From the IMG/VR virus record IMGVR_UViG_2703718775_000026: DNA of 39,308 nucleotides. One strand, written 5' to 3'. The translations under genes and the position numbers were made by a program. The notes beneath the pieces are model-generated. The model saw only the letters and a list, made by a program, of their open reading frames with translations, made no database searches and was not told where the DNA came from. Shown here piece after piece: positions 8,216 to 39,308 of the stretch; the first letter of the stretch is position 1, and every line of letters begins with the position of its first letter. Source of the stretch: a virus. Lineage: Duplodnaviria > Heunggongvirae > Uroviricota > Caudoviricetes.

Positions 8216-8767
8216 ATGATGATTTTACAACCCATGGGGCGAAAAGGCCGTGCACCCGCTCATGTCCGTGCGTGGACACCTGAAGAAGATGCACTGCTGA
8301 TTGCGCTTTATCCATCCACCCCGGTTAAGGATATTGCTGTCAGGGTAAAAAGAAGTTTCTGGGGTGTACATAACCGGATTGTTTTATTACGCGGTACTTA
8401 CCCGGAGTTGCTCAAATGCAAACGTCCAAGATTTAAACATGATGAAGATAAATTTATCCGAAAAAATGCCAGAACGATGACCGGTAAGCAAATAGGAGAA
8501 TATCTGGGGCGAGACCGGGATTCTGTCCACAAACGGGCGCGATATATTGGCGTAAGCATGAAAAAATACGGAGAGTTGCTGCCCTTCACCCGTATACCTG
8601 ATGATGATGTTCATCTTATTCGTGAATTACGGGATGCTGAATCACCACGACGTCTTACCTTCCGGGAAATAGGCGAGAAATTTGAATTATCCGAGAGTAC
8701 GGTGAATTTTATTTATCACCATCGCCGGACTGCCGAAGATGTTGTATTACGGGAGTTAATGCCATGA
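8216..8767 (+). CDS. Hypothetical protein with three tandem HTH-like repeats
   Basis: 183 aa; three ~40-aa repeats (WTPEEDALLIALY...VHNRIVLL; HDEDKFIRKNARTMTGKQIGEYLGRDRDSVHKRARYIG; DDDVHLIRELRDAESPRRLTFREIGEKFELSESTVNFI). Confidence 0.5.
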   Translation: MMILQPMGRKGRAPAHVRAWTPEEDALLIALYPSTPVKDIAVRVKRSFWGVHNRIVLLRGTYPELLKCKRPRFKHDEDKFIRKNARTMTGKQIGEYLGRDRDSVHKRARYIGVSMKKYGELLPFTRIPDDDVHLIRELRDAESPRRLTFREIGEKFELSESTVNFIYHHRRTAEDVVLRELMP

Positions 8768-9075
8768 TAACGACATTATTTGTTGAATCAGACGAGCCTC
8801 TGGTATGTGCCGCCGGAATGTCGGTTTGTGGCGGAACGCTGACCGGTGTTTATTTCGGGGATTTGCGCGGTTATCCCTGGCATTCACTGGATGACGCATT
8901 TCCGCCTGATATGGAGGCTGTCGTGCTGATTGTTCAGTATGGTGACCAACAGGAACTGCGCATCGGCCATATGGGGTATGAAGGCTTTTTTATTGATGAA
9001 GAAACCGGAGCCTGCCTTGAAGATGAGGACGGACAGGTGACGCACTGGTGCCATATTTCAGCTTTACCGGAATGA
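8764..9075 (+). CDS. Hypothetical early protein
   Basis: 103 aa; ATGA start/stop overlap with the upstream gene. Confidence 0.45.
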   Translation: MITTLFVESDEPLVCAAGMSVCGGTLTGVYFGDLRGYPWHSLDDAFPPDMEAVVLIVQYGDQQELRIGHMGYEGFFIDEETGACLEDEDGQVTHWCHISALPE

Positions 9076-9440
9076 CGGGAGGTGAGTGCGTGAGAAGTTA
9101 TATTGATAATGAAAAACTGAAGACAATCAGCGACTGTCTTAGCTTGCTGGCAAAAATAAAAGAAACCATTGAAGAGATTAAATTTCAGCTTGAATACGAA
9201 CCCTGTGGCGATGATACATGGCGTAACTCTGCCAGAAAAGCACTGGCTGTCTTTCAGAAACAACGCCGGACTGTTGAATACCGCCTTGCTGTATTGCGCC
9301 AGGAGGAAAAGGAAAGAAATATAAGACGTCATGAACTCGTTAATGATTTTCTTGTTCGTGAATTAAAGGAGCGTGTGCCGGAGTCGGTATTTTTTGAGTG
9401 TGAGGCTGTTGCCCGTAGCAAAGCACTGGAAACTGATTAA
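9072..9440 (+). CDS. Hypothetical early protein
   Basis: ORF 9048-9440; the ATG at 9072 overlaps the upstream stop (ATGA) and is preceded by GGA; predicted coiled-coil rich in K/E. Confidence 0.4.
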   Translation: MTGGECVRSYIDNEKLKTISDCLSLLAKIKETIEEIKFQLEYEPCGDDTWRNSARKALAVFQKQRRTVEYRLAVLRQEEKERNIRRHELVNDFLVRELKERVPESVFFECEAVARSKALETD

Positions 9441-12300: not shown

Positions 12301-12502
12301 ATGGCTGGCTGACTGCCTGGTCCCTCCTGTGCCGGAGCCGTTCACGTTTGGGGCATCGGTCACTTACAACCTGCAACTGCTGGCGGTGATCAAGAACTGC
12401 AACGTGGACAAGGCCAGTATTCGTCGTCTGGAGGCGCGGCGACAACATGAATTTACTGATATGGCCGGAACGCCTGCTGTTCCGGCAGGAAAGACGAAGT
12501 AA
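12131..12502 (+). CDS. Rz1-like o-spanin lipoprotein, +1 frame overlapping the i-spanin
   Basis: Lipobox LIGC followed by a proline-rich mature region (CAGPSVKYVPVKPVPIPAEW...). Frame is +1 relative to the i-spanin and extends past its stop. The start could be ATG 12131 or TTG about 12176. Confidence 0.5.
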   Translation: MKNNRTFSTARDSRALSAGRWQRCLRPLPLFLMMWLIGCAGPSVKYVPVKPVPIPAEWLADCLVPPVPEPFTFGASVTYNLQLLAVIKNCNVDKASIRRLEARRQHEFTDMAGTPAVPAGKTK

Positions 12503-12512
12503 GGAAAAAGGT

Positions 12513-12740
12513 ATGGATGATTCAGATCGTGCTCAGGCTGTGATGGAGCGGGGATCAGAACGCGCCCTTTGTAACCGGCTGACACGTAAGCGCCGGGCAA
12601 TGGATGCTCCGGGCAGACGTGTCTGCGCGGACTGTGGCGGAGAGATCCCCGCCGCACGTCTTGTTGCTGTGCCGGATGCCATCCGTTGTGTGAACTGCCA
12701 GAACATCATGGAGGCCCGTCATGTGGGTCAGCATCGTTAA
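12513..12740 (+). CDS. TraR/DksA-family C4 zinc-finger protein
   Basis: ATG at 12513 with AGGAAAAAGG RBS inside ORF 12447-12740; CADCGGEIPAARLVAVPDAIRCVNC fits C-x2-C-x17-C-x2-C. Confidence 0.6.
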   Translation: MDDSDRAQAVMERGSERALCNRLTRKRRAMDAPGRRVCADCGGEIPAARLVAVPDAIRCVNCQNIMEARHVGQHR

Positions 12741-13032
12741 AGATTATGTTGTGCCGATCCTTTCGGCGACGGCAACCGCTGGCGGGATATTCATGGCGCT
12801 GATGCGCAAAACGTTTGTCCCCCGCGAGGCCTTTGAAAAACTCTCCGACCGCGTTGAGAAGGTGGAAACCCGCCTGTCGTCACTGCCGACAGAAGCTGAG
12901 GTCAACCGTCTGAATGTGGAAATCGTGACCCTGCGGGGTGAACTGAAAACCACGAACGCCACGCTCCGCTCTGTCTCCTATCAGAACGAACTGCTGCTGG
13001 AGCAGGCGGTAAGGAAAAAAACGAATGAGTGA
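12721..13032 (+). CDS. Small membrane protein with periplasmic coiled-coil (releasin-like position in lysis cluster)
   Basis: 103 aa; N-terminal TM VVPILSATATAGGIFMALM followed by a coiled-coil. Confidence 0.45.
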   Translation: MWVSIVKDYVVPILSATATAGGIFMALMRKTFVPREAFEKLSDRVEKVETRLSSLPTEAEVNRLNVEIVTLRGELKTTNATLRSVSYQNELLLEQAVRKKTNE

Positions 13033-32603: not shown

Positions 32604-33514
32604 TGTTTCATGTTGATAATAATTCCGGCGTGGCGAATATGCCTGCGCTGGCACCGGCGCAGAGTAATACCACCACCTGGTTTACCGAAGGTGACGGACA
32701 AAAAGGTATCAGCTGGATTGGTCAGGACTGGCTGAATATTCTCCAGGCCGAACTGCTGAATATTCTGGCTGAAGCCAGTATTCAGCCGGATAAGGCGCAG
32801 TTAAACCAGCTTACGCTGTCCATTAAAGCCATTATCGCTGCGAATGCCTTTTCCCGGAAAAACAACCTGAAAGAAATTGCTGATGCCGGTGCGGAAGCCC
32901 AGCGTCTTGCCCGTGGTTATCTTGGTCTTGGGGCGCTTGCCACAAAAAACAGTCTTGGTCCCGGTGACGTTAATGCTCTGGCGAAGGATCAGAACCTTGC
33001 CGACCTGGAGAATGCGGGAACCGCCCGTAATAATCTGGATGTTTACAGCAAAAGCGAAGGTGATAACCGTTACCTGCGCAGGGAGCAGAACGGCGCAGAC
33101 ATTCCGGATAAAGGCGCTTTTATCGATAACGTCGGTTTACGGGAAACGGTAAATAAGGCTGCTGATGCCCTGCCATCGGGTGGAACCGCCGTGGCAGCAA
33201 ACAGACTCGCCACCCCAAGAAATATTAATGGCGTTCCTTTTGACGGAACGCAGGATATCAACATCACGTCAGGAATGACGCAGTCAACCGCAGATGGCCG
33301 GTATGTACAGAATGTTCAGCTTGGAGCACAGAGCTATCATTCACCCGGAGGCAATGAAATATCATGGAATTACAGCGCACCTTCCGGTTGTATGCTTTCC
33401 GGTATTAACGTGCAGGAAACCGGCTCCCGGTCTGCGGACAATATCGGTGGGGTCTATTATCGCCCGGTTCAGATTTATATTAATAATGCCTGGAGAACGG
33501 TAAGTTCAGTGTAA
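32603..33514 (+). CDS. Tail fibre protein S (constant part plus currently expressed variable C-terminus Sv)
   Basis: 303 aa; the gix-like site lies inside the gene at about 33120-33145; the C-terminal third is homologous to the inverted S'v cassette. Confidence 0.7.
   Translation: MFHVDNNSGVANMPALAPAQSNTTTWFTEGDGQKGISWIGQDWLNILQAELLNILAEASIQPDKAQLNQLTLSIKAIIAANAFSRKNNLKEIADAGAEAQRLARGYLGLGALATKNSLGPGDVNALAKDQNLADLENAGTARNNLDVYSKSEGDNRYLRREQNGADIPDKGAFIDNVGLRETVNKAADALPSGGTAVAANRLATPRNINGVPFDGTQDINITSGMTQSTADGRYVQNVQLGAQSYHSPGGNEISWNYSAPSGCMLSGINVQETGSRSADNIGGVYYRPVQIYINNAWRTVSSV
33120..33145. other. gix-like recombination site (left), inside S
   Basis: Contains TCGGTTTACGGGA, the reverse complement of TCCCGTAAACCGA in the right site. 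Confidence 0.6.
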
Positions 33515-33548: not shown

Positions 33549-34070
33549 TTATTCCGGTTTTTCCGGCCAGGGAATCGCCTGGTAATGCCCCTCACTGGCA
33601 ATATCATTAAAGTGCATTTCTTTAAGCTGTCGGATATACGCCATCCAGCGCGTCAGCTGTAATTTATTTTCATCGCTAATCATGTCCAGTTTTAATTCTG
33701 TTTTCCAGTCATCCACGGTTTCGTTGGCTTCCTGGAGCAGCGATGAGCGACGCTTTTCAGCAACCGTCTTCCAGTTTACCGGCACCTTTGATATCAGGCC
33801 ATCAGAACACTGCCAGTTACCGTCAATATTCACACCTTCCGGCAGTTCGTCCACTTCAACAACAGTAAAACCTGCCGGATATAAAGCAGAGACATCTTCA
33901 GCAACAGAGCAGATAATACCCGTTACAGGCGAAATACAGAGTTTGTATTTCTTTGTGAAAAGCGGGATAGATTCATAAAAATCCCTTCCGTCCTCACTCT
34001 GGAAATACTGAACATCCTCACCATAGGGTTTGTGTTCCGGGTAATATCGTTTTACGTTAATAAGCTCCAT
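33549..34070 (-). CDS. Tail fibre assembly protein (U'-like), currently antisense to S
   Basis: ATG (MELINVKRYYPE...) with AAGGTGA RBS inside minus ORF 33549-34181; about 173 aa, typical Tfa size and composition; inside the invertible segment. Confidence 0.65.
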   Translation of the reverse strand: MELINVKRYYPEHKPYGEDVQYFQSEDGRDFYESIPLFTKKYKLCISPVTGIICSVAEDVSALYPAGFTVVEVDELPEGVNIDGNWQCSDGLISKVPVNWKTVAEKRRSSLLQEANETVDDWKTELKLDMISDENKLQLTRWMAYIRQLKEMHFNDIASEGHYQAIPWPEKPE

Positions 34071-34149
34071 TATTTCACCTTGTTTTTGTTGAAAAGACAA
34101 AATCATCATATATTTATTCAGATAATCTGTTTTTTGAACTACTGCACTT

Positions 34150-34495
34150 TTATGCGCTGGAAGCTGTTTTCCACGAACCATCTATCAGAAACTGAACAGG
34201 TCGATAATATGCGGTTACCGTTGCATTACCATCACCAGCGACATCAAGCCCTGTAAGTACGCATCCGTCAGGAACTTCAAAAATATTATATTGCATTCCA
34301 ATCGTTGACCTTGAACCTCTTCGAATGCTTTGAACATAACGTGAGTCAGCCACAGACTGCGTCATCCCCGATGTAATATTTATATCCTGCGTTCCGTCAA
34401 ATGGGACACCATTAATATTTCTTGGAGTGGCGAGTTTATTCGCTGCAACAGCCGTTCCGTTCGATGGCAGGGCATTCGCGGCCCTGTTTACAGTA
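34150..34495 (-). other. S'v: alternative tail-fibre C-terminal cassette (silent in this orientation)
   Basis: Minus-strand reading from the right gix site gives ...VGLRDTVNRAANALPSNGTAVAANKLATPRNINGVPFDGTQDINITSGMTQSVADSRYVQS..., in frame with and homologous to Sv. Confidence 0.6.
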
Positions 34496-34520
34496 TCCCG
34501 TAAACCGAGGTTTCAGGGAT
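34494..34520. other. gix-like recombination site (right)
   Basis: Near-palindrome ATCCCGTAAACC-GA-GGTTTCAGGGAT, resembling the gix/hix invertase site family. Confidence 0.6.
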
Positions 34521-34574
34521 GCCGTATATCTGCTTTAAAAGGCCTTTCCACCTCTTTTTAAGGAAGGTAAATAC

Positions 34575-35135
34575 ATGCTGATTGGCTATATACGCGTATC
34601 AACAAATGACCAGAACACCGGTTTACAAAGAAATGCGCTGGAATGTGCAGGATGTGAGCAGATTTTTGAAGACAAAATGAGTGGTAAAACGACACAGCGG
34701 CCGGGACTGAAGCGGGCACTGAAGAAACTAAAACCCGGTGACACACTGATGGTCTGGAAACTGGACAGGCTGGGGCGCAGTATGCGCCACCTTGTTGCGC
34801 TGACAGATGAATTACAGCAACAGGGGATAAATTTTCGTAGTCTTACTGACAACATTGATACGTCAACCCCCATGGGGCGCTTCTTTTTTCACATAATGGG
34901 TGCGCTGGCAGAAATGGAGCGTGAATTAATTGTCGAACGGACACGGGCTGGTCTTGCAGCTGCCCGTGAAAGGGGACGAACCGGCGGCAGACCCCGTCGT
35001 CTCACGCAGGAACAATACGAGCAGGTCGGGCGTTTACTGGCCGGGGGTGTCAGTCGAAGACAGGTGGCACTTATTTTTGATATCGGCCTTTCAACCCTTT
35101 ATCGTTATTATCCTGCGAGCGTTTCGGAAAAATAA
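34575..35135 (+). CDS. gin: Gin/Pin/Hin-family serine DNA invertase
   Basis: 186 aa; MLIGYIRVSTNDQNTGLQRNALECAGCEQIFEDK... is nearly identical in pattern to Mu Gin; catalytic-Ser motif RVSTNDQ; C-terminal HTH. Confidence 0.9.
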   Translation: MLIGYIRVSTNDQNTGLQRNALECAGCEQIFEDKMSGKTTQRPGLKRALKKLKPGDTLMVWKLDRLGRSMRHLVALTDELQQQGINFRSLTDNIDTSTPMGRFFFHIMGALAEMERELIVERTRAGLAAARERGRTGGRPRRLTQEQYEQVGRLLAGGVSRRQVALIFDIGLSTLYRYYPASVSEK

Positions 35136-35225
35136 GACGCTCCCTTTGTTGGGCCTTTACTGAATTAACGCAAAATGGCGTTTATCGGTCTGTGGATATG
35201 ATAATTCTGTTTATTCAGGAACAGG

Positions 35226-37283
35226 ATGAATATTATGACGTCCAAATGGGTTCAACTATCATCAATGCCCGGAAACTTTACCGTTAAAGTTTCCGGTGGT
35301 ACAGCGGCATTTCTTGAGGCTCCCTTTCCTCCTGCTGAAACGAAAGGAGGAATGACATTTGCTGACTGTCTCATCAGTTTTAATACACAGGATTGCCTGT
35401 GGGTAAGGCCAGTATCCGGTGATCCGAACGTGGAAATTACCGGAGCGGGTATTGGTGCTGTCATTCCGTTAAGTGCTGATGTTGCCGGTACTACTGAACC
35501 GTCAGACTGGGATAATGCAGAAACACATACCCGTCCGGCAGGAAATGAAACGGCTTCCAGCTCCCCTTCCTGGTATTACGTGATTGTTATAGCCGGCCAG
35601 TCCAATGCTTCATCTTATGGTGAAGGGTTGCCCCTTCCGGATTCTTATGATCGTCCTGATCCACGTATTATGCAGCTGGCACGCAGGAATACACAAACCC
35701 CCGGAGGTATTCCCTGCAAATACAATGAAATCATTCCAGCAGATCACTGCCTTCATGATGTTCAGAATATGAGTCTGCTGAACCATCCAAAAGCAGACCT
35801 GAAAAAAGGGCAGTATGGTTGTGTGGGGCAGGGACTTCATATTGCGAAAAAAGTATTACCGGTGATTCCTGCTGATGCCGGGATTTTACTGGTTCCCTGT
35901 GCCCGTGGCGGCTCTGCTTTTACAACCGGCGCAGTTGGCTCATTCGATCCGGCAAGTGGTGCAGCCGAGGCGTCACTACGCTGGGGAGTGGATACCCCAC
36001 TGTATCAGGATCTTGTCAGTCGAACTAAAGCGGCACTTGAGGCGAATCCAAAGAATGTGCTGTTATCTGTCGTATGGATTCAGGGGGAAGGAGACCTTAA
36101 AGCGACCCCGGCCCAGCATGGTGCCCAGTTTACTGCGATGGTGAAAAAATTCCGTGCGGATCTTGGTGCTTTCTCCGGTCAGTGTATTGGTGGTTCATCA
36201 GACAGTGTGCCGTGGTTATGTGGTGACACAACCTATGACTGGAAAGAGAAGAACCCAGCGGCATATGAAACCATTTATAGCGGATATAAAAACCGGGCTT
36301 CCGAGAACATTCACTTTGTTCCACTGATGCACGATGAGTTCGGTAATAAAACCGCGACCAACCTGCCGGAGCACGACCCGGATATCGCTTCTGCCGGGTA
36401 TTATGGTGCGGAATCACGGGGAGATGGCAACTGGACAACAGCATCCAGGGCAACCCATTTTAGCTCCTGGGCGCGCCGTTTTCTGGTCTCAGATCGTTTT
36501 GCATCAGCAATTCTTAAATATGCAGGTCTGACCTCTGCATTTATTGCCGGTGTGGCCCCTGATGGTGAAGCCCTGCCTCAGCCCGCGCCGGGTGGGAAAC
36601 CGGAAGCGCCGACAGGTAGTCAGCCAGGAGGCAGTGAGTCCCCCCATCCGACATCCCCGTCACTCCGTACGCTGCTTTCACTTAAAGCATCAGCAGGAGA
36701 AGCCCCGGCTCAGGGCTGGAAAATTACAGATGGTACAATCCAGCTGACGGACGAAGGTAAAGCGTTGACCGTATCCAAACAAAGCGGAAAAACCTGGGCG
36801 CTTACCCATGGAACTGATGCAGCCGGTGAACTTCTGAAGCATGGTGGTCAGTTGACCTGTAAATTCCGTCTGTCAGGTGAAGTAAAAGAAGGCCAGTTTG
36901 CTCTGGGTATTTACCTCCACACCGATACGGTCCCGGAAGGTGTAACCATGAGTGGTACAGGCACACCGTTCCTGATGGCGTATTATCTCCAGACAACAGG
37001 CGGCCAGTTAAATCTGATGCACCATAAAACAGGGGGGAATACGAAACTGGGATCATTTGGAGCCTACAATAACCAGTGGCATACACTTGTCCTGAAGTTT
37101 ACGGCGGGAAGTGCCCAGGTAACGCCTGTGCTGGATGGCACTCCGGGCCAGGCATTCCAGATGGTGAAAGATGCACTTTCCCCTGCCAAAGATACGCTGA
37201 CACTGACAGATGTCACCAAAGGGGCAACTTATGGCGTGTCTTTTGAGAGCGTTGTCCTTGAGGTTAATACCCCTGCGGCATAA
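35226..37283 (+). CDS. SGNH/GDSL-type esterase (sialate/carbohydrate O-acetylesterase-like) with C-terminal lectin-like domain; cargo protein
   Basis: 685 aa. GQSN nucleophile motif (VIVIAGQSNASSYGEG, nt about 35595-35606), WIQGEGD block and later His/Asp candidates; C-terminal ~200 aa with beta-rich, lectin-like composition. Architecture resembles prophage NanS-p-type esterases. Confidence 0.55.
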   Translation: MNIMTSKWVQLSSMPGNFTVKVSGGTAAFLEAPFPPAETKGGMTFADCLISFNTQDCLWVRPVSGDPNVEITGAGIGAVIPLSADVAGTTEPSDWDNAETHTRPAGNETASSSPSWYYVIVIAGQSNASSYGEGLPLPDSYDRPDPRIMQLARRNTQTPGGIPCKYNEIIPADHCLHDVQNMSLLNHPKADLKKGQYGCVGQGLHIAKKVLPVIPADAGILLVPCARGGSAFTTGAVGSFDPASGAAEASLRWGVDTPLYQDLVSRTKAALEANPKNVLLSVVWIQGEGDLKATPAQHGAQFTAMVKKFRADLGAFSGQCIGGSSDSVPWLCGDTTYDWKEKNPAAYETIYSGYKNRASENIHFVPLMHDEFGNKTATNLPEHDPDIASAGYYGAESRGDGNWTTASRATHFSSWARRFLVSDRFASAILKYAGLTSAFIAGVAPDGEALPQPAPGGKPEAPTGSQPGGSESPHPTSPSLRTLLSLKASAGEAPAQGWKITDGTIQLTDEGKALTVSKQSGKTWALTHGTDAAGELLKHGGQLTCKFRLSGEVKEGQFALGIYLHTDTVPEGVTMSGTGTPFLMAYYLQTTGGQLNLMHHKTGGNTKLGSFGAYNNQWHTLVLKFTAGSAQVTPVLDGTPGQAFQMVKDALSPAKDTLTLTDVTKGATYGVSFESVVLEVNTPAA

Positions 37284-37340
37284 TCGTGACGGCCGGGAAT
37301 TTATCCGGCTGTAACATCAGTTAATAAGAGTGAGGCTTAT

Positions 37341-37520
37341 ATGACATATATAAACGTCTGCCTGCTGTATTTCTGCACGGTGGTTTGTTGTCTGTTGCTT
37401 GTCAGCGGTGGTTATAAAATTATTCGCAATTATTTTCGAAATAAAATTGATGCAGCTGCCGAGGAAAAGATAAAAAGCGGTGCTGTAATGCCGCAGCCGA
37501 AAGACTCCGGTCAGATTTAA
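37341..37520 (+). CDS. Small hydrophobic membrane peptide (59 aa)
   Basis: ATG with GAGTGAGG upstream; MTYINVCLLYFCTVVCCLLLVSGGYKIIRNYFRNK... has an N-terminal TM helix and basic tail. Not in the ORF track (below the length cutoff). Confidence 0.4.
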   Translation: MTYINVCLLYFCTVVCCLLLVSGGYKIIRNYFRNKIDAAAEEKIKSGAVMPQPKDSGQI

Positions 37521-37555
37521 TTTTTTGTGAACCAGAAAAGGAAAGGAGAATATTC

Positions 37556-37801
37556 ATGCCAGAGATTAAAGGCACGGTTACTGAAGAGCTTGTCAAACAG
37601 GCACTTTATTCTGAAGAAGTGAACCGCGTGCTGAAGGCGCAGGTTCGCAAGGATTTTGAGGCACAAATCGACGCATATGTTGATGAAGTGCTGGCCCGAA
37701 TGGTTGGTCGTTCTCCGGCTGAAAACAGCACGGAAAATGAGCCTCAACCCGTAGAGCAACCAGAGCCGGTTCAGCCCGGAACTGACGGTACTATGATGTA
37801 A
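37556..37801 (+). CDS. Hypothetical acidic protein (81 aa)
   Basis: Strong RBS AAAGGAAAGGAGA; helical N-terminus and Pro/Glu-rich C-terminus. Confidence 0.5.
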   Translation: MPEIKGTVTEELVKQALYSEEVNRVLKAQVRKDFEAQIDAYVDEVLARMVGRSPAENSTENEPQPVEQPEPVQPGTDGTMM

Positions 37802-37810
37802 CAATACCGA

Positions 37811-37830
37811 CCGGCAGGTTTCCCTGCCGG
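37811..37830. terminator. Hairpin between convergent small genes (possible bidirectional terminator)
   Basis: CCGGCAGG-TTTC-CCTGCCGG with moderately T-rich flanks on both strands. Confidence 0.35.
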
Positions 37831-37839
37831 GTGAATTTG

Positions 37840-38010
37840 TTAATGCACGTTTTGTGTATTTTCCCTCCGGGGAGAACAGGCAGGACATATCAGCATCCTG
37901 AAACAGGAAGCATTTTTTGGTTTGTATGTCTTGCCATTTTGAGATCGAGAACGGCGATAGATGAGCTGTAAGGGAGTCTTACAGGCAGGGCAAACAGGCT
38001 CTTTATCCAT
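37840..38010 (-). CDS. Small zinc-ribbon protein (two CPAC motifs), 56 aa
   Basis: Minus-strand ATG (MDKEPVCPACKTPLQ...ICPACSPRR...) with AAGGAG 8 nt upstream; inside minus ORF 37840-38034. Confidence 0.45.
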   Translation of the reverse strand: MDKEPVCPACKTPLQLIYRRSRSQNGKTYKPKNASCFRMLICPACSPRRENTQNVH

Positions 38011-38118
38011 GATAAAGATCTCCTTTTTATGCATCTCTGCTTTACAGGAGACCGGGGAATATCATAGGATACGCCACGAGCTCGAAGTAAAGCATTGATG
38101 CAAGTTTTTACAGATTGA

Positions 38119-38156
38119 CCCAGCATAGTTCCAGCTATGCTGGGTTTCCCTTTTAT
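38119..38156 (+). terminator. Rho-independent terminator-like hairpin upstream of com-mom
   Basis: Perfect 10-bp stem CCCAGCATAG / CTATGCTGGG with 6-nt loop, followed by TTTCCCTTTTAT. Confidence 0.55.
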
Positions 38157-38189
38157 GTAGTATCCTGTTGATTTGAAACATACTACATA

Positions 38190-38416
38190 TACGCGCGATC
38201 CTACCTTCACTGTATAAAAAGTCAATAAAATGATCATTTTATGATCGTTTTCACCACCTAACTCTTCGTTTCTTTAAGTAAATAATCACCGCCCTGAATC
38301 ATTGTTGATGACTTTTAAATCTATTTGTTGTATCAATTAAACAAATCGAATCGATCGTTTTTGTCGATCGATTGCATGAGAAAGGCATCAACAACAAAGC
38401 AGGAGGTTATGCGGCC
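38190..38416 (+). promoter_or_regulatory. Putative mom-operon regulatory region with clustered Dam (GATC) sites
   Basis: Five GATC within about 175 bp (about 38197, 38232, 38243, 38353, 38366), arranged as two repeat pairs: TGATCATTTTATGATCGTTTT and ATCGATCGTTTTTGTCGATCGAT. Confidence 0.5.
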
Positions 38417-38617
38417 ATGTATCGAAACATACGGTGCCGACACTGCAATAAGCTACTGGCACGGGCCAGTTTCAGTTATCTGGAAGTAAAATGTCCGCGC
38501 TGTAAAACCCTCAATCAAATCACATCTCCGAGCGCCACAGAGCACCCCACATACACAAGGAAATCCTGTCGTGGGGAACAGAAAGCAAGTCACATCCCGT
38601 ATCATCAGCACGCCTGA
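38417..38617 (+). CDS. com: Com-like zinc-finger translational activator of mom
   Basis: ATG with AGCAGGAGG RBS; [35 protein letters not shown] resembles Mu Com (...IRCKNCNKLL...IEIRCPRCKR...); overlaps the mom start. Confidence 0.7.
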
Positions 38618-39308
38618 ACTTATTCGCTATAACGACAATATCGTTGGTTATGGCTCCCGTGAGTTGCGGGTTGAGACAATAAGTTGCTGGCTGGCCAGAC
38701 TGGTTATCGTCAATAAACATTACAGCCACCGTTTCGTAAATAATTCCTACCTTCATCTGGGTATATTTTCAGAACGGGAACTTGTTGGCGTAATGCAATG
38801 GGGTTACGCCCTTAACCCAAACAGTGGTGCACGCGTCGTAACGGGTACGCAGAACCGAGAATATATGGAGCTTAACCGGCTATGGATGCATGACTGTATG
38901 CCGAGAAACTCCGAATCAAGGGCAATCAGTTACGCGCTCAAGCTAATCAGGCAGCTTTATCCGCAGGTACAGTGGGTTCAGTCGTTTGCAGATGAGCGTT
39001 GTGGCTGTCTTGGTGTCGTGTATCAGGCAAGCAATTTTGATTATGTAGGCAGCCATGAATCAACATTCTATGAACTTGATGGCGAGTGGTATCACGAGAT
39101 TTGCAGGAGTGCCATTAAACGAGGCGGACAACGAGGTGAACATCTGAGGGCTAATATCGACAGAGCCAGTGTGCATAAGTTCCGACAGTTTCGTTACATC
39201 CGGTTTCTGAACAAGAGGGCCAGAAAACGCCTCAACACAAAGCTATTCAAAGTCCAGCCTTACCCAAAACCACAAACAGTTAAAACTGGTTTGAAAGAGA
39301 GTGAATGA
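38571..39308 (+). CDS. mom: Mom-like DNA modification protein (adenine modification, anti-restriction); start uncertain
   Basis: 245-aa ORF overlapping the com 3' end, stop at window end; position downstream of gin and com as in Mu. Confidence 0.65.

Follow-up and report, generated by a model that had tools for sequence, protein, structure and literature searches.

A NanS-p-family esterase gene with an alternative N-terminal domain at the gin-com position of Mu-like Escherichia coli prophages

In IMG/VR record IMGVR_UViG_2703718775_000026, a 39,308-nt stretch of Mu-like prophage DNA (hereafter the window), an open reading frame (ORF) of 685 amino acids with an ATG start lies on the + strand at 35226..37283, between the DNA invertase gene gin and the com-mom genes. 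A preliminary description, made from the sequence alone, had given exactly this ORF, and had stated that in phage Mu gin is followed directly by com-mom. This is right, as in Mu (NC_000929) only 94 bp separate the end of gin at 35673 from the start of com at 35768, compared to 3,236 bp in the window, in agreement with the 3.2 kb of extra DNA that had been estimated. The extra DNA consists of the large ORF and two small + strand genes encoding DUF1378 and DUF826 proteins. The remainder of the window is a complete Mu-like prophage, in which Pfam recognizes the features of a Mu-like transposable phage: MuA and MuB, the Mu-type head genes (Mu portal, MuF and gpT), the sheath, the gp43-48 baseplate genes including gp43 and gp44, gin and com-mom. 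The features at the locus are the following.

34575..35135, + strand: gin-type DNA invertase, upstream neighbour (Pfam Resolvase, 1.4e-51, and HTH_7; 75% amino acid identity to Mu Gin).
35136..35225, + strand: gin-esterase intergenic region with ribosome-binding site (100% identical between two Mu-like alleles).
35226..37283, + strand: whole esterase gene, 685 amino acids (SASA and DUF6645; phrog_143; matches to 3PT5 and 6YP6).
35226..35546, + strand: N-terminal domain, amino acids 1-107, with an all-beta core at about amino acids 8-81, then a low-confidence linker ending in ETASSSPSW.
35547..36545, + strand: esterase domain, SGNH type II / SASA, amino acids 108-440 (3PT5 NanS, amino acids 108-432).
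35598-35603 and 36456-36458: codons of Gln125-Ser126 and of His411, respectively; an RGGSAF block lies at amino acids 227-232.
36546..36665, + strand: Pro/Gly/Ser-rich interdomain linker, amino acids 441-480, sequence AGVAPDGEALPQPAPGGKPEAPTGSQPGGSESPHPTSPS (no homolog in BLAST).
36666..37283, + strand: lectin-like jelly-roll domain, DUF6645, amino acids 481-685 and stop codon (PF20350, 6YP6).
37341..37520, + strand: second gene of the module, DUF1378 small protein of 59 amino acids with a hydrophobic N-terminal stretch (PF07125, 9.2e-24; phrog_494).
37556..37801, + strand: third gene of the module, DUF826 protein of 81 amino acids (PF05696, 3.1e-15; 98-100% identical between Mu-like alleles).
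37811..37830, no strand assigned: GC-rich hairpin CCGGCAGG-TTTC-CCTGCCGG, an inverted repeat 10 nt past the DUF826 stop (terminator scan silent, T-run weak).
38117..38146, + strand: terminator-like hairpin between the module and com, with a 13-bp stem and a T-rich tail (top-ranked in the terminator scan).
38372-38617, + strand: com, Mu-type downstream neighbour, probable start at about 38417 (Zn_ribbon_Com, 3.3e-12).
38571-39308, + strand: mom, reaching the window end (Pfam Mom, 8.5e-77).

The large ORF is real, far beyond chance, given its scores against phrog_143 in PHROGs (E=2.8e-273, amino acids 65-684) and against PDB 3PT5, the E. coli NanS/YjhS structure (E=3.7e-110, amino acids 108-432), and the dozens of complete E. 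coli genomes that have a near-identical copy. The Pfam family SASA (PF03629) matches amino acids 119-315 with 51.3 bits (cutoff 24.8), and the motif VIVIAGQSNASSYGEG is present, with GQSN at amino acids 124-127. The active site of NanS is composed of Ser19 and His301 and lacks a catalytic Asp; Gln18 occupies the oxyanion hole (PMC9063846). Gln125, Ser126 and His411 of the window protein align with Gln18, Ser19 and His301 of NanS and are conserved in all eight sequences compared, and the RGG(S/A)AF block is kept in every relative compared. Identity over the esterase domain amounts to 68% with lambdoid NanS-p (BP-4795, PA2) and to 54.5% with NanS (3PT5). The PF03629 score, the identity to a crystallised NanS and the conserved catalytic residues thus sustain the SGNH esterase centre with a GQSN motif that had been predicted before, and the Pfam search and comparison with NanS by which the preliminary description was followed up yielded both SASA/SGNH and DUF6645 matches.

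DUF6645 (PF20350) is found at amino acids 537-647 (E=8e-26), and PDB 6YP6, a crystallised C-terminal domain named 'NanS-p', matches amino acids 481-682 (E=1e-41), which bears out the C-terminal lectin-like domain of about 200 amino acids described earlier. In lambdoid NanS-p, the C-terminal domain is a lectin-like jelly-roll and probably a carbohydrate-binding module (PMC8065619). The window domain is about 39% identical to that of BP-4795 and PA2, and a counterpart is missing in NanS. Together with the 68% in the esterase domain, this turns the likeness to NanS-p that had been noticed into true homology. The lectin domain is the most variable part of the protein, with 35-45% identity to other Mu-like alleles and 58% to P0117, an allele of the DUF1737 type. 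The protein is quite probably an esterase of the NanS-p family, encoded in a three-gene module, and its substrates are likely to be O-acetylated sialic acids, judging from these relatives. The Ser126-His411 dyad, with Gln125 in the oxyanion hole, would remove sialic-acid O-acetyl groups, the expected substrates being free Neu5,9Ac2 (5-N-acetyl-9-O-acetylneuraminic acid) and O-acetylated sialoglycans on mucin, and the C-terminal lectin-like domain is predicted to keep the enzyme on its glycan substrate.

Alternatively, the protein could be a virion-borne receptor-modifying enzyme that de-O-acetylates bacterial O-antigen, capsule or another surface polysaccharide for adsorption, rather than mucin sialic acids, an idea that was raised for NanS-p in a review (PMC8065619). 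The position of the gene directly after the tail-fibre module speaks for this, as do the high variability of the lectin domain, which is also seen in receptor-binding proteins, and a weak match, restricted to the SASA region, to the 'tail protein' family phrog_25867 (E=1.1e-6). However, the catalytic domain shares its 54.5% identity with a sialate esterase and its lambdoid homologs with 68% identity act on sialate and mucin, cassettes of the same types are found in unrelated phages that use different receptors, and neither a trimeric beta-helix or other trimerisation or fibre module, as in esterase tailspikes, nor a known tail-attachment N-terminus appears among the Pfam or PDB matches. We therefore consider this alternative improbable.

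The N-terminal part, which had been set apart before as a domain of unknown type of about 110 amino acids, measures about 107 amino acids and matched no family in the Pfam scan. DUF1737 (PF08410), the N-terminal domain ('D') of the published NanS-p architecture that precedes SASA and the C-terminal domain, gave no match in the window protein even at E<=0.1. Precomputed Pfam lists divide the relatives into those with and those without PF08410, the window protein being in the latter group, and lambdoid copies align to the window protein only from about amino acids 71-111 onward. In the phage collection, the first 110 residues were found only in two 'inserted Mu-like phage' regions and in no lambdoid copy; in the phages LC727895 and LC727881, an entire Mu-like phage is inserted inside a Shiga toxin (Stx)-converting prophage. 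For the start of the gene, M1 (35226) and M4 (35235) are both plausible from the sequence, each with an AGGA 5-8 nt upstream (35217-35220 and 35223-35226, respectively). RefSeq record WP_044078958.1 (L001 3967, about window position 35265) starts at Met14 and counts 672 amino acids, as is the case in some other RefSeq records; this start probably lies too far downstream, because Trp8, which is invariant across the N-domain family, would be lost.

An exhaustive HMMER scan of 1.84 billion representatives returned only a handful of relatives of the N-domain. A profile search detected fused forms in E. coli, Shigella and Salmonella; in Salmonella it also detected stand-alone ORFs, 77-80 amino acids long. 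Identity of the fused forms to the window N-domain is 45-96% in E. coli and Shigella and 28-38% in Salmonella, and the 22 stand-alone ORFs have a mean column identity of 79%. The stand-alone ORFs match phrog_4772 at 1e-15 to 1e-19, and the window N-domain matches this profile weakly (E=0.0021, amino acids 3-71 to profile positions 8-77 of 79). An hhalign comparison of the fused and stand-alone alignments gave 77% probability (E=2e-5, 62 columns), a modest support, and Trp8, Pro36 and Trp59 are invariant in the joint alignment. AlphaFold with this joint alignment predicted a confident compact all-beta domain of six strands (predicted local distance difference test score, pLDDT, 86-90 over amino acids 10-75). 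Fold searches with the N-domain model were uninformative, and a single-sequence AlphaFold model of the entire 685-amino acid protein was unusable (mean pLDDT 32).

In Salmonella prophages, the ORF of 77-80 amino acids is always located directly after tail fibre, assembly and invertase genes and is followed by a variable gene and then by DUF1353. The variable gene encodes an ILEI-domain protein in one type, and a 332-amino acid protein with its own DUF4376 fibre-assembly-type chaperone in another. This three-part module (phrog_4772-type ORF, variable gene with ILEI/PF15711 or 332 amino acids plus DUF4376, DUF1353) is present at L011 8001-9179 and L014 8001-10391. In one further record (L008), the small ORF and a 703-amino acid esterase are parted by a single in-frame stop. 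Two other leads were not retained as relatives of the N-domain. P0006, a repeat protein of 1,445 amino acids, was set aside as a probable compositional match due to its Gly/Ala/Val/Thr-rich repeats, and a Kuttervirus lead (27% identity, E=2e-4) was too weak to use. In this lead, an ORF for a hypothetical protein of 77 amino acids (Kuttervirus PhaxI, L017 6965-7726) is located directly upstream of a gene annotated as 'tail needle knob', an arrangement seen in about 129 Kuttervirus-type phage records.

To delineate the conserved and exchanged parts of the locus, the DNA identity profile of the window was determined against a second Mu-like allele, LC727895 (L002).

Up to about 35600: gin, intergenic region and N-domain, ending at the GQSN motif; 91-100% DNA identity.
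About 35600-37540: esterase core, linker, lectin domain and DUF1378; 21-76% DNA identity.
From about 37540: DUF826 through com; 88-100% DNA identity.

Identity thus breaks sharply at the GQSN motif (about 35600) and a second time at about 37540, and DUF1378 lies inside the swapped cassette. At the protein level, other alleles compare with the window protein as follows.

Alleles P0037, P0047 and P0075: N-domain 93%, esterase 67%, lectin 36-40%.
Allele P0117 (DUF1737-type): N-domain unrelated, esterase 67%, lectin 58%.

Over the alleles with a swapped cassette, the N-domain stays 93-96% identical. No other allele class comes closer to the window in its lectin domain than P0117. These allele-by-domain identities indicate that the three domains are combinatorially shuffled. 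The same comparison indicates that the N-terminus tracks the phage backbone, with the window-type domain in Mu-like and DUF1737 in lambdoid phages. Further N-terminal variants occur in a P2-like record and in a second myovirus type (L009). The latter, a myovirus contig, has an esterase-lectin gene with a short, unrelated N-terminus, as well as a macro-domain protein (PF01661) between the tail fibre and the fibre-assembly gene (8368-9177). P0141 (752 amino acids) combines DUF1737, SASA, most of the lectin domain and a C-terminal tail Collar domain (PF07484), and as such is an esterase-tail fibre fusion. The same DUF1737-type esterase is encoded after the lysis genes in a partial P2-like phage record, vB_EcoM-705R2 (L004 5800-7050).

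At a DNA identity of at least 85%, the window esterase-lectin cassette was found in the Mu-like prophage only, in 43 genomes. A recent lambdoid donor of the cassette was sought and none was identifiable, as lambdoid DNA identity is 68-69% and covers only the esterase core. H175, considered as a second context of the cassette, is really this prophage, broken up by a rearrangement. Five E. coli genomes have the Mu-like prophage split within the esterase gene, near window position 35710 (L018 = NZ_CP027591.1, about 7000 and about 12441-12917), with the N-terminal fragment and the remainder apart and inverted, beside an integrase fragment and IS66, which suggests rearrangement via nanS paralogues or nearby mobile elements.

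Since the identity break falls exactly at the start of the esterase domain, and since the DUF1378 and DUF826 companions are common to lambdoid phages, one could regard the N-terminal 107 amino acids as a functionless remnant of the recombination of a lambdoid nanS-p into a Mu-like gene, kept for its start codon and expression signals. This is very improbable. The N-domain is conserved at the protein level over the ranges given above for E. coli, Shigella and Salmonella, with its Trp, Pro and Trp invariant, a compact fold is predicted for it with high confidence, and it persists as a conserved independent ORF.

With respect to distribution, the stretch from gin to mom is present at about 99% identity in 38 complete E. 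coli genomes, largely of bovine and human E. coli that produce Shiga toxin (STEC) including O157:H7, and the N-terminal part of the gene in 205 of the 5,426 complete E. coli genomes (about 4%), mostly STEC. Every N-domain context examined was a Mu-like prophage with a gin-com-type position. A query joining window gin directly to com-mom found no genome with this adjacency and no insert-less close relative in the collection. Because window gin adjoins com-mom in no genome, nanS-p/DUF1378/DUF826 is a fixed, standard module of this Mu-like E. coli prophage clade and no recent insertion. To speak of 'cargo' in an unusual context, as was done before, is thus correct in that the DNA is extra compared to Mu, and overstated for a module that belongs to the clade. 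The gene is not sporadic among the related Mu-like prophages at the gin-com junction either: the module is standard there, and is found in a diverged Salmonella-type Mu-like phage as well.

Alleles P0081 (N-domain 54%) and P0154 (N-domain 45%) are also located in Mu-like prophages (L019 and L021), in the order gp43 to gp48, fibre, assembly, gin or none, esterase, DUF1378, DUF826, com, Mom or C5 methylase, host genes. In a much diverged Mu-like viral contig (L007), a 784-amino acid protein with the same N-domain, SASA and DUF6645 is encoded directly after the fibre-assembly gene, and downstream of it lie a com-like region and a methylase. The N-domain of this protein is almost the same as that of P0010, which is a fragment assigned to Salmonella by NCBI. 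LC727895 (L002 7525-8577), L019 (10792-11844) and L007 (13785-14837) have a C5 cytosine DNA methyltransferase in place of Mom and keep com or a com-like gene. Classical Mu, D108 and SfMu are without the esterase gene. No mention of a Mu-like nanS-p copy was found in the searchable literature, and Sp18 of O157 Sakai has been described only as an apparently intact Mu-like prophage (PMC2669165).

Concerning expression, no terminator-like site was found between gin and the esterase ORF in the terminator scan. In the gin-less prophage L021, the esterase gene lies 190 bp downstream of the assembly gene in the same orientation, which is consistent with the esterase being the distal end of a late tail transcript. 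Downstream, the hairpin at 37811-37830 is a possible operon end, and that at 38117-38146 could shield a separately controlled com-mom from read-through. A cluster of GATC sites in short palindromes (atcgatcg...tcgatcgatt) lies at 38344-38378, just upstream of com, with more at 38196 and 38241; such a cluster is reminiscent of the regulatory region of mom in Mu, which is under Dam/OxyR control. Promoter or operator motifs common to the region upstream of the esterase and to the control region of mom were sought, and only short repeats at chance level were found; an Rfam scan of 34300-39308 found nothing. An N-terminal hydrophobic segment is absent from the esterase sequence, indicating that there is no signal peptide. 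Because of this, the esterase would be produced during lytic development, when transcripts of the tail genes or of gin read through into its gene, and would leave the cell at lysis; late expression with release by lysis is reasonably probable. Once outside the cell, the enzyme would make O-acetylated sialic acids usable for the surviving lysogen population.

The remaining question is what the N-domain contributes. It would dock or oligomerise the esterase on the Mu-type particle, as a counterpart of DUF1737, a role that we put forward tentatively and by analogy. A small conserved N-terminal unit with exchangeable glycan-directed distal parts, located near fibre genes, is the pattern of the virion attachment modules of receptor-binding proteins. 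In combination with the report that NanS-p of phi24B (gp84) decorates the capsid via DUF1737, with the esterase and lectin parts cleaved off (preprint, bioRxiv 10.64898/2026.04.10.717836), this pattern makes it the most economical hypothesis that the N-domain acts for Mu-type particles as DUF1737 does for phi24B. In a wider form, the N-domain might be a new docking or adaptor domain of Mu-type and related myovirus particles, so that the same cassette is carried on two unrelated virion architectures via interchangeable anchors, DUF1737 for lambdoid and podovirus capsids and the window-type domain for Mu-like phages, which is doubtful at present; the phrog_4772 stand-alone relatives would then be general adaptors for variable glycan-binding accessory proteins on prophage particles.

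The main competing explanation is that the esterase is purely a lysogen fitness factor (a moron) that is never part of the virion and that, released at lysis or leaking, feeds the population with de-acetylated sialic acid, the N-domain then serving only for oligomerisation or solubility, or as one more glycan-binding domain. For lambdoid NanS-p, a virion-associated and a lysogen-fitness role both have support in published work (PMC8065619; bioRxiv 10.64898/2026.04.10.717836), and we regard this explanation as a serious possibility that falls somewhat short of probable. It does not account for an N-terminus that is strictly DUF1737 in lambdoid and strictly of the window type in Mu-like phages while the enzyme and lectin parts move freely, nor for stand-alone homologs that always directly follow tail-fibre genes, and the NanS-p of phi24B is reported to be virion-associated (bioRxiv 10.64898/2026.04.10.717836).

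Several observations weigh against our own interpretation, in which a sialate esterase is expressed late and docked on the particle by its N-domain. The specificity is extrapolated from proteins with 54-68% identity, and identity of the lectin domain to other alleles is only 35-58%. The sigma-70-like sites found in the promoter search occur at background frequency and none is assignable. The link between the N-domain and the phrog_4772/stand-alone ORFs is modest (E=0.002; hhalign 77%), stand-alone homologs also occur in prophages with non-Mu baseplates, so that the domain is not strictly tied to Mu, and no conserved partner protein of the N-domain is evident. The position of the break at GQSN may have a simple reason, this being the first stretch with enough conservation for homologous recombination. 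Finally, no experiment on the window allele was found in the searchable literature. For docking, to which we give a low probability, the fold was uninformative, and the non-Mu baseplates and this other reading of the GQSN break count against it.

The enzyme in itself is ordinary. As far as we found, what has not been described is the alternative N-domain linked to the phage backbone, the combinatorial shuffling and the conserved position in Mu-like phages, and the most interesting feature is the N-domain that replaces DUF1737. NanS-p esterases are thought to aid growth of STEC on O-acetylated mucin sialic acids, and here the same enzyme-lectin core is standard in a wholly different phage type, the Mu-like transposable myoviruses. 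As a consequence, counts of STEC nanS-p alleles that are based on DUF1737 or on a lambdoid context miss the window copy. Virion display of NanS-p also becomes testable in a second system. If the N-domain is a second virion anchor, a phage-carried mucin-modifying enzyme becomes a general idea; if the adaptor function is true, a large family of small unannotated prophage ORFs gains a function, and the targeting of mucus or sialoglycans by virions would be a modular trait that is widespread among temperate phages of STEC and Salmonella.

Some other features surround the module. The region of about 570 bp between the DUF826 gene and com contains, next to the strong terminator-like hairpin, two overlapping minus-strand ORFs (37840-38237). 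One, of 115 amino acids, matches phrog_26524 (E=1.7e-61); the other, of 64 amino acids, has two CPAC motifs, which suggests a zinc ribbon. RefSeq annotates 37840-38237 as one frameshifted pseudogene, and the region is 88-100% conserved in the second Mu-like allele. On the other side of the module, inverted copies at 33128-33285 and 34354-34512 (83-85% identical in L001, a near-identical O157:H7 prophage copy) enclose two features of the minus strand, a tail-fibre assembly gene (33549-34181) and an ORF for a fibre C-terminus (34150-34365). The region beside gin is thus an invertible host-range segment like the G segment of Mu, with fibre genes unlike those of Mu.

Among the known systems closest to the window protein are the lambdoid NanS-p esterases, which are active on Neu5,9Ac2 and mucin O-glycans and give lysogens a growth advantage, and of which the gene is co-induced with late genes (PMC8065619). 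Like the window protein they combine homologous SASA (68%) and lectin (about 39%) domains without a signal peptide, in a gene that has DUF1378/DUF826-like genes next to it and lies late in an STEC temperate phage. The order in BP-4795 is stxA, stxB, a small ORF, yjhS (nanS-p), DUF1378, ORF45 and holin S, and the C-terminal segment of ORF45 is DUF826-like, with 47% identity to the window DUF826 protein. In contrast to the window protein, which starts with an unrelated all-beta domain and has a lectin domain of a divergent type, the lambdoid proteins start with DUF1737. Moreover, lambdoid nanS-p is located between Q/stx and holin S, whereas the window gene follows the tail fibre and gin and precedes com-mom in a transposable Mu-like myovirus. 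By sequence, the catalytic and lectin domains thus place the window protein in the NanS-p family, and it differs from that family in its N-terminus, which is not DUF1737, and in its position outside a lambdoid late operon.

Chromosomal NanS (YjhS, 3PT5) has the same full-length catalytic domain and the same Gln-Ser...His site without a catalytic Asp. It is a single-domain protein of the nan regulon, while the window protein is phage-encoded and adds about 107 amino acids at the N-terminus and about 245 amino acids (linker and lectin domain) at the C-terminus. The stand-alone ORFs of Salmonella prophages (phrog_4772; e.g. P0012 and P0019) align end-to-end with the core of the N-domain, with the Trp, the Pro and the Trp-x-Arg conserved, and occupy the same position as the window esterase, after tail fibre, assembly and invertase genes and before a variable gene. 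They differ in being separate polypeptides, only 14-21% identical to the window N-domain, with downstream genes that are not esterases.

DUF1737 of phi24B gp84, finally, resembles the window N-domain in being a small N-terminal domain before an esterase-lectin core, with a Ser/Pro-containing joint into a (W/Y)YYV strand. The 'SSP' motif of the preprint was rejected as support for a processing site here, as NanS itself also has (S/I)SP(D/E/S)(Y/W)YY, with which the catalytic domain of NanS begins in conserved form. The two domains have no sequence similarity, and their fold class differs: DUF1737 is described as one helix and three strands (bioRxiv 10.64898/2026.04.10.717836), whereas the window domain is modelled as a six-strand beta-barrel. 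Capsid binding has been reported for DUF1737 only, and the window N-domain is known from its sequence and model.

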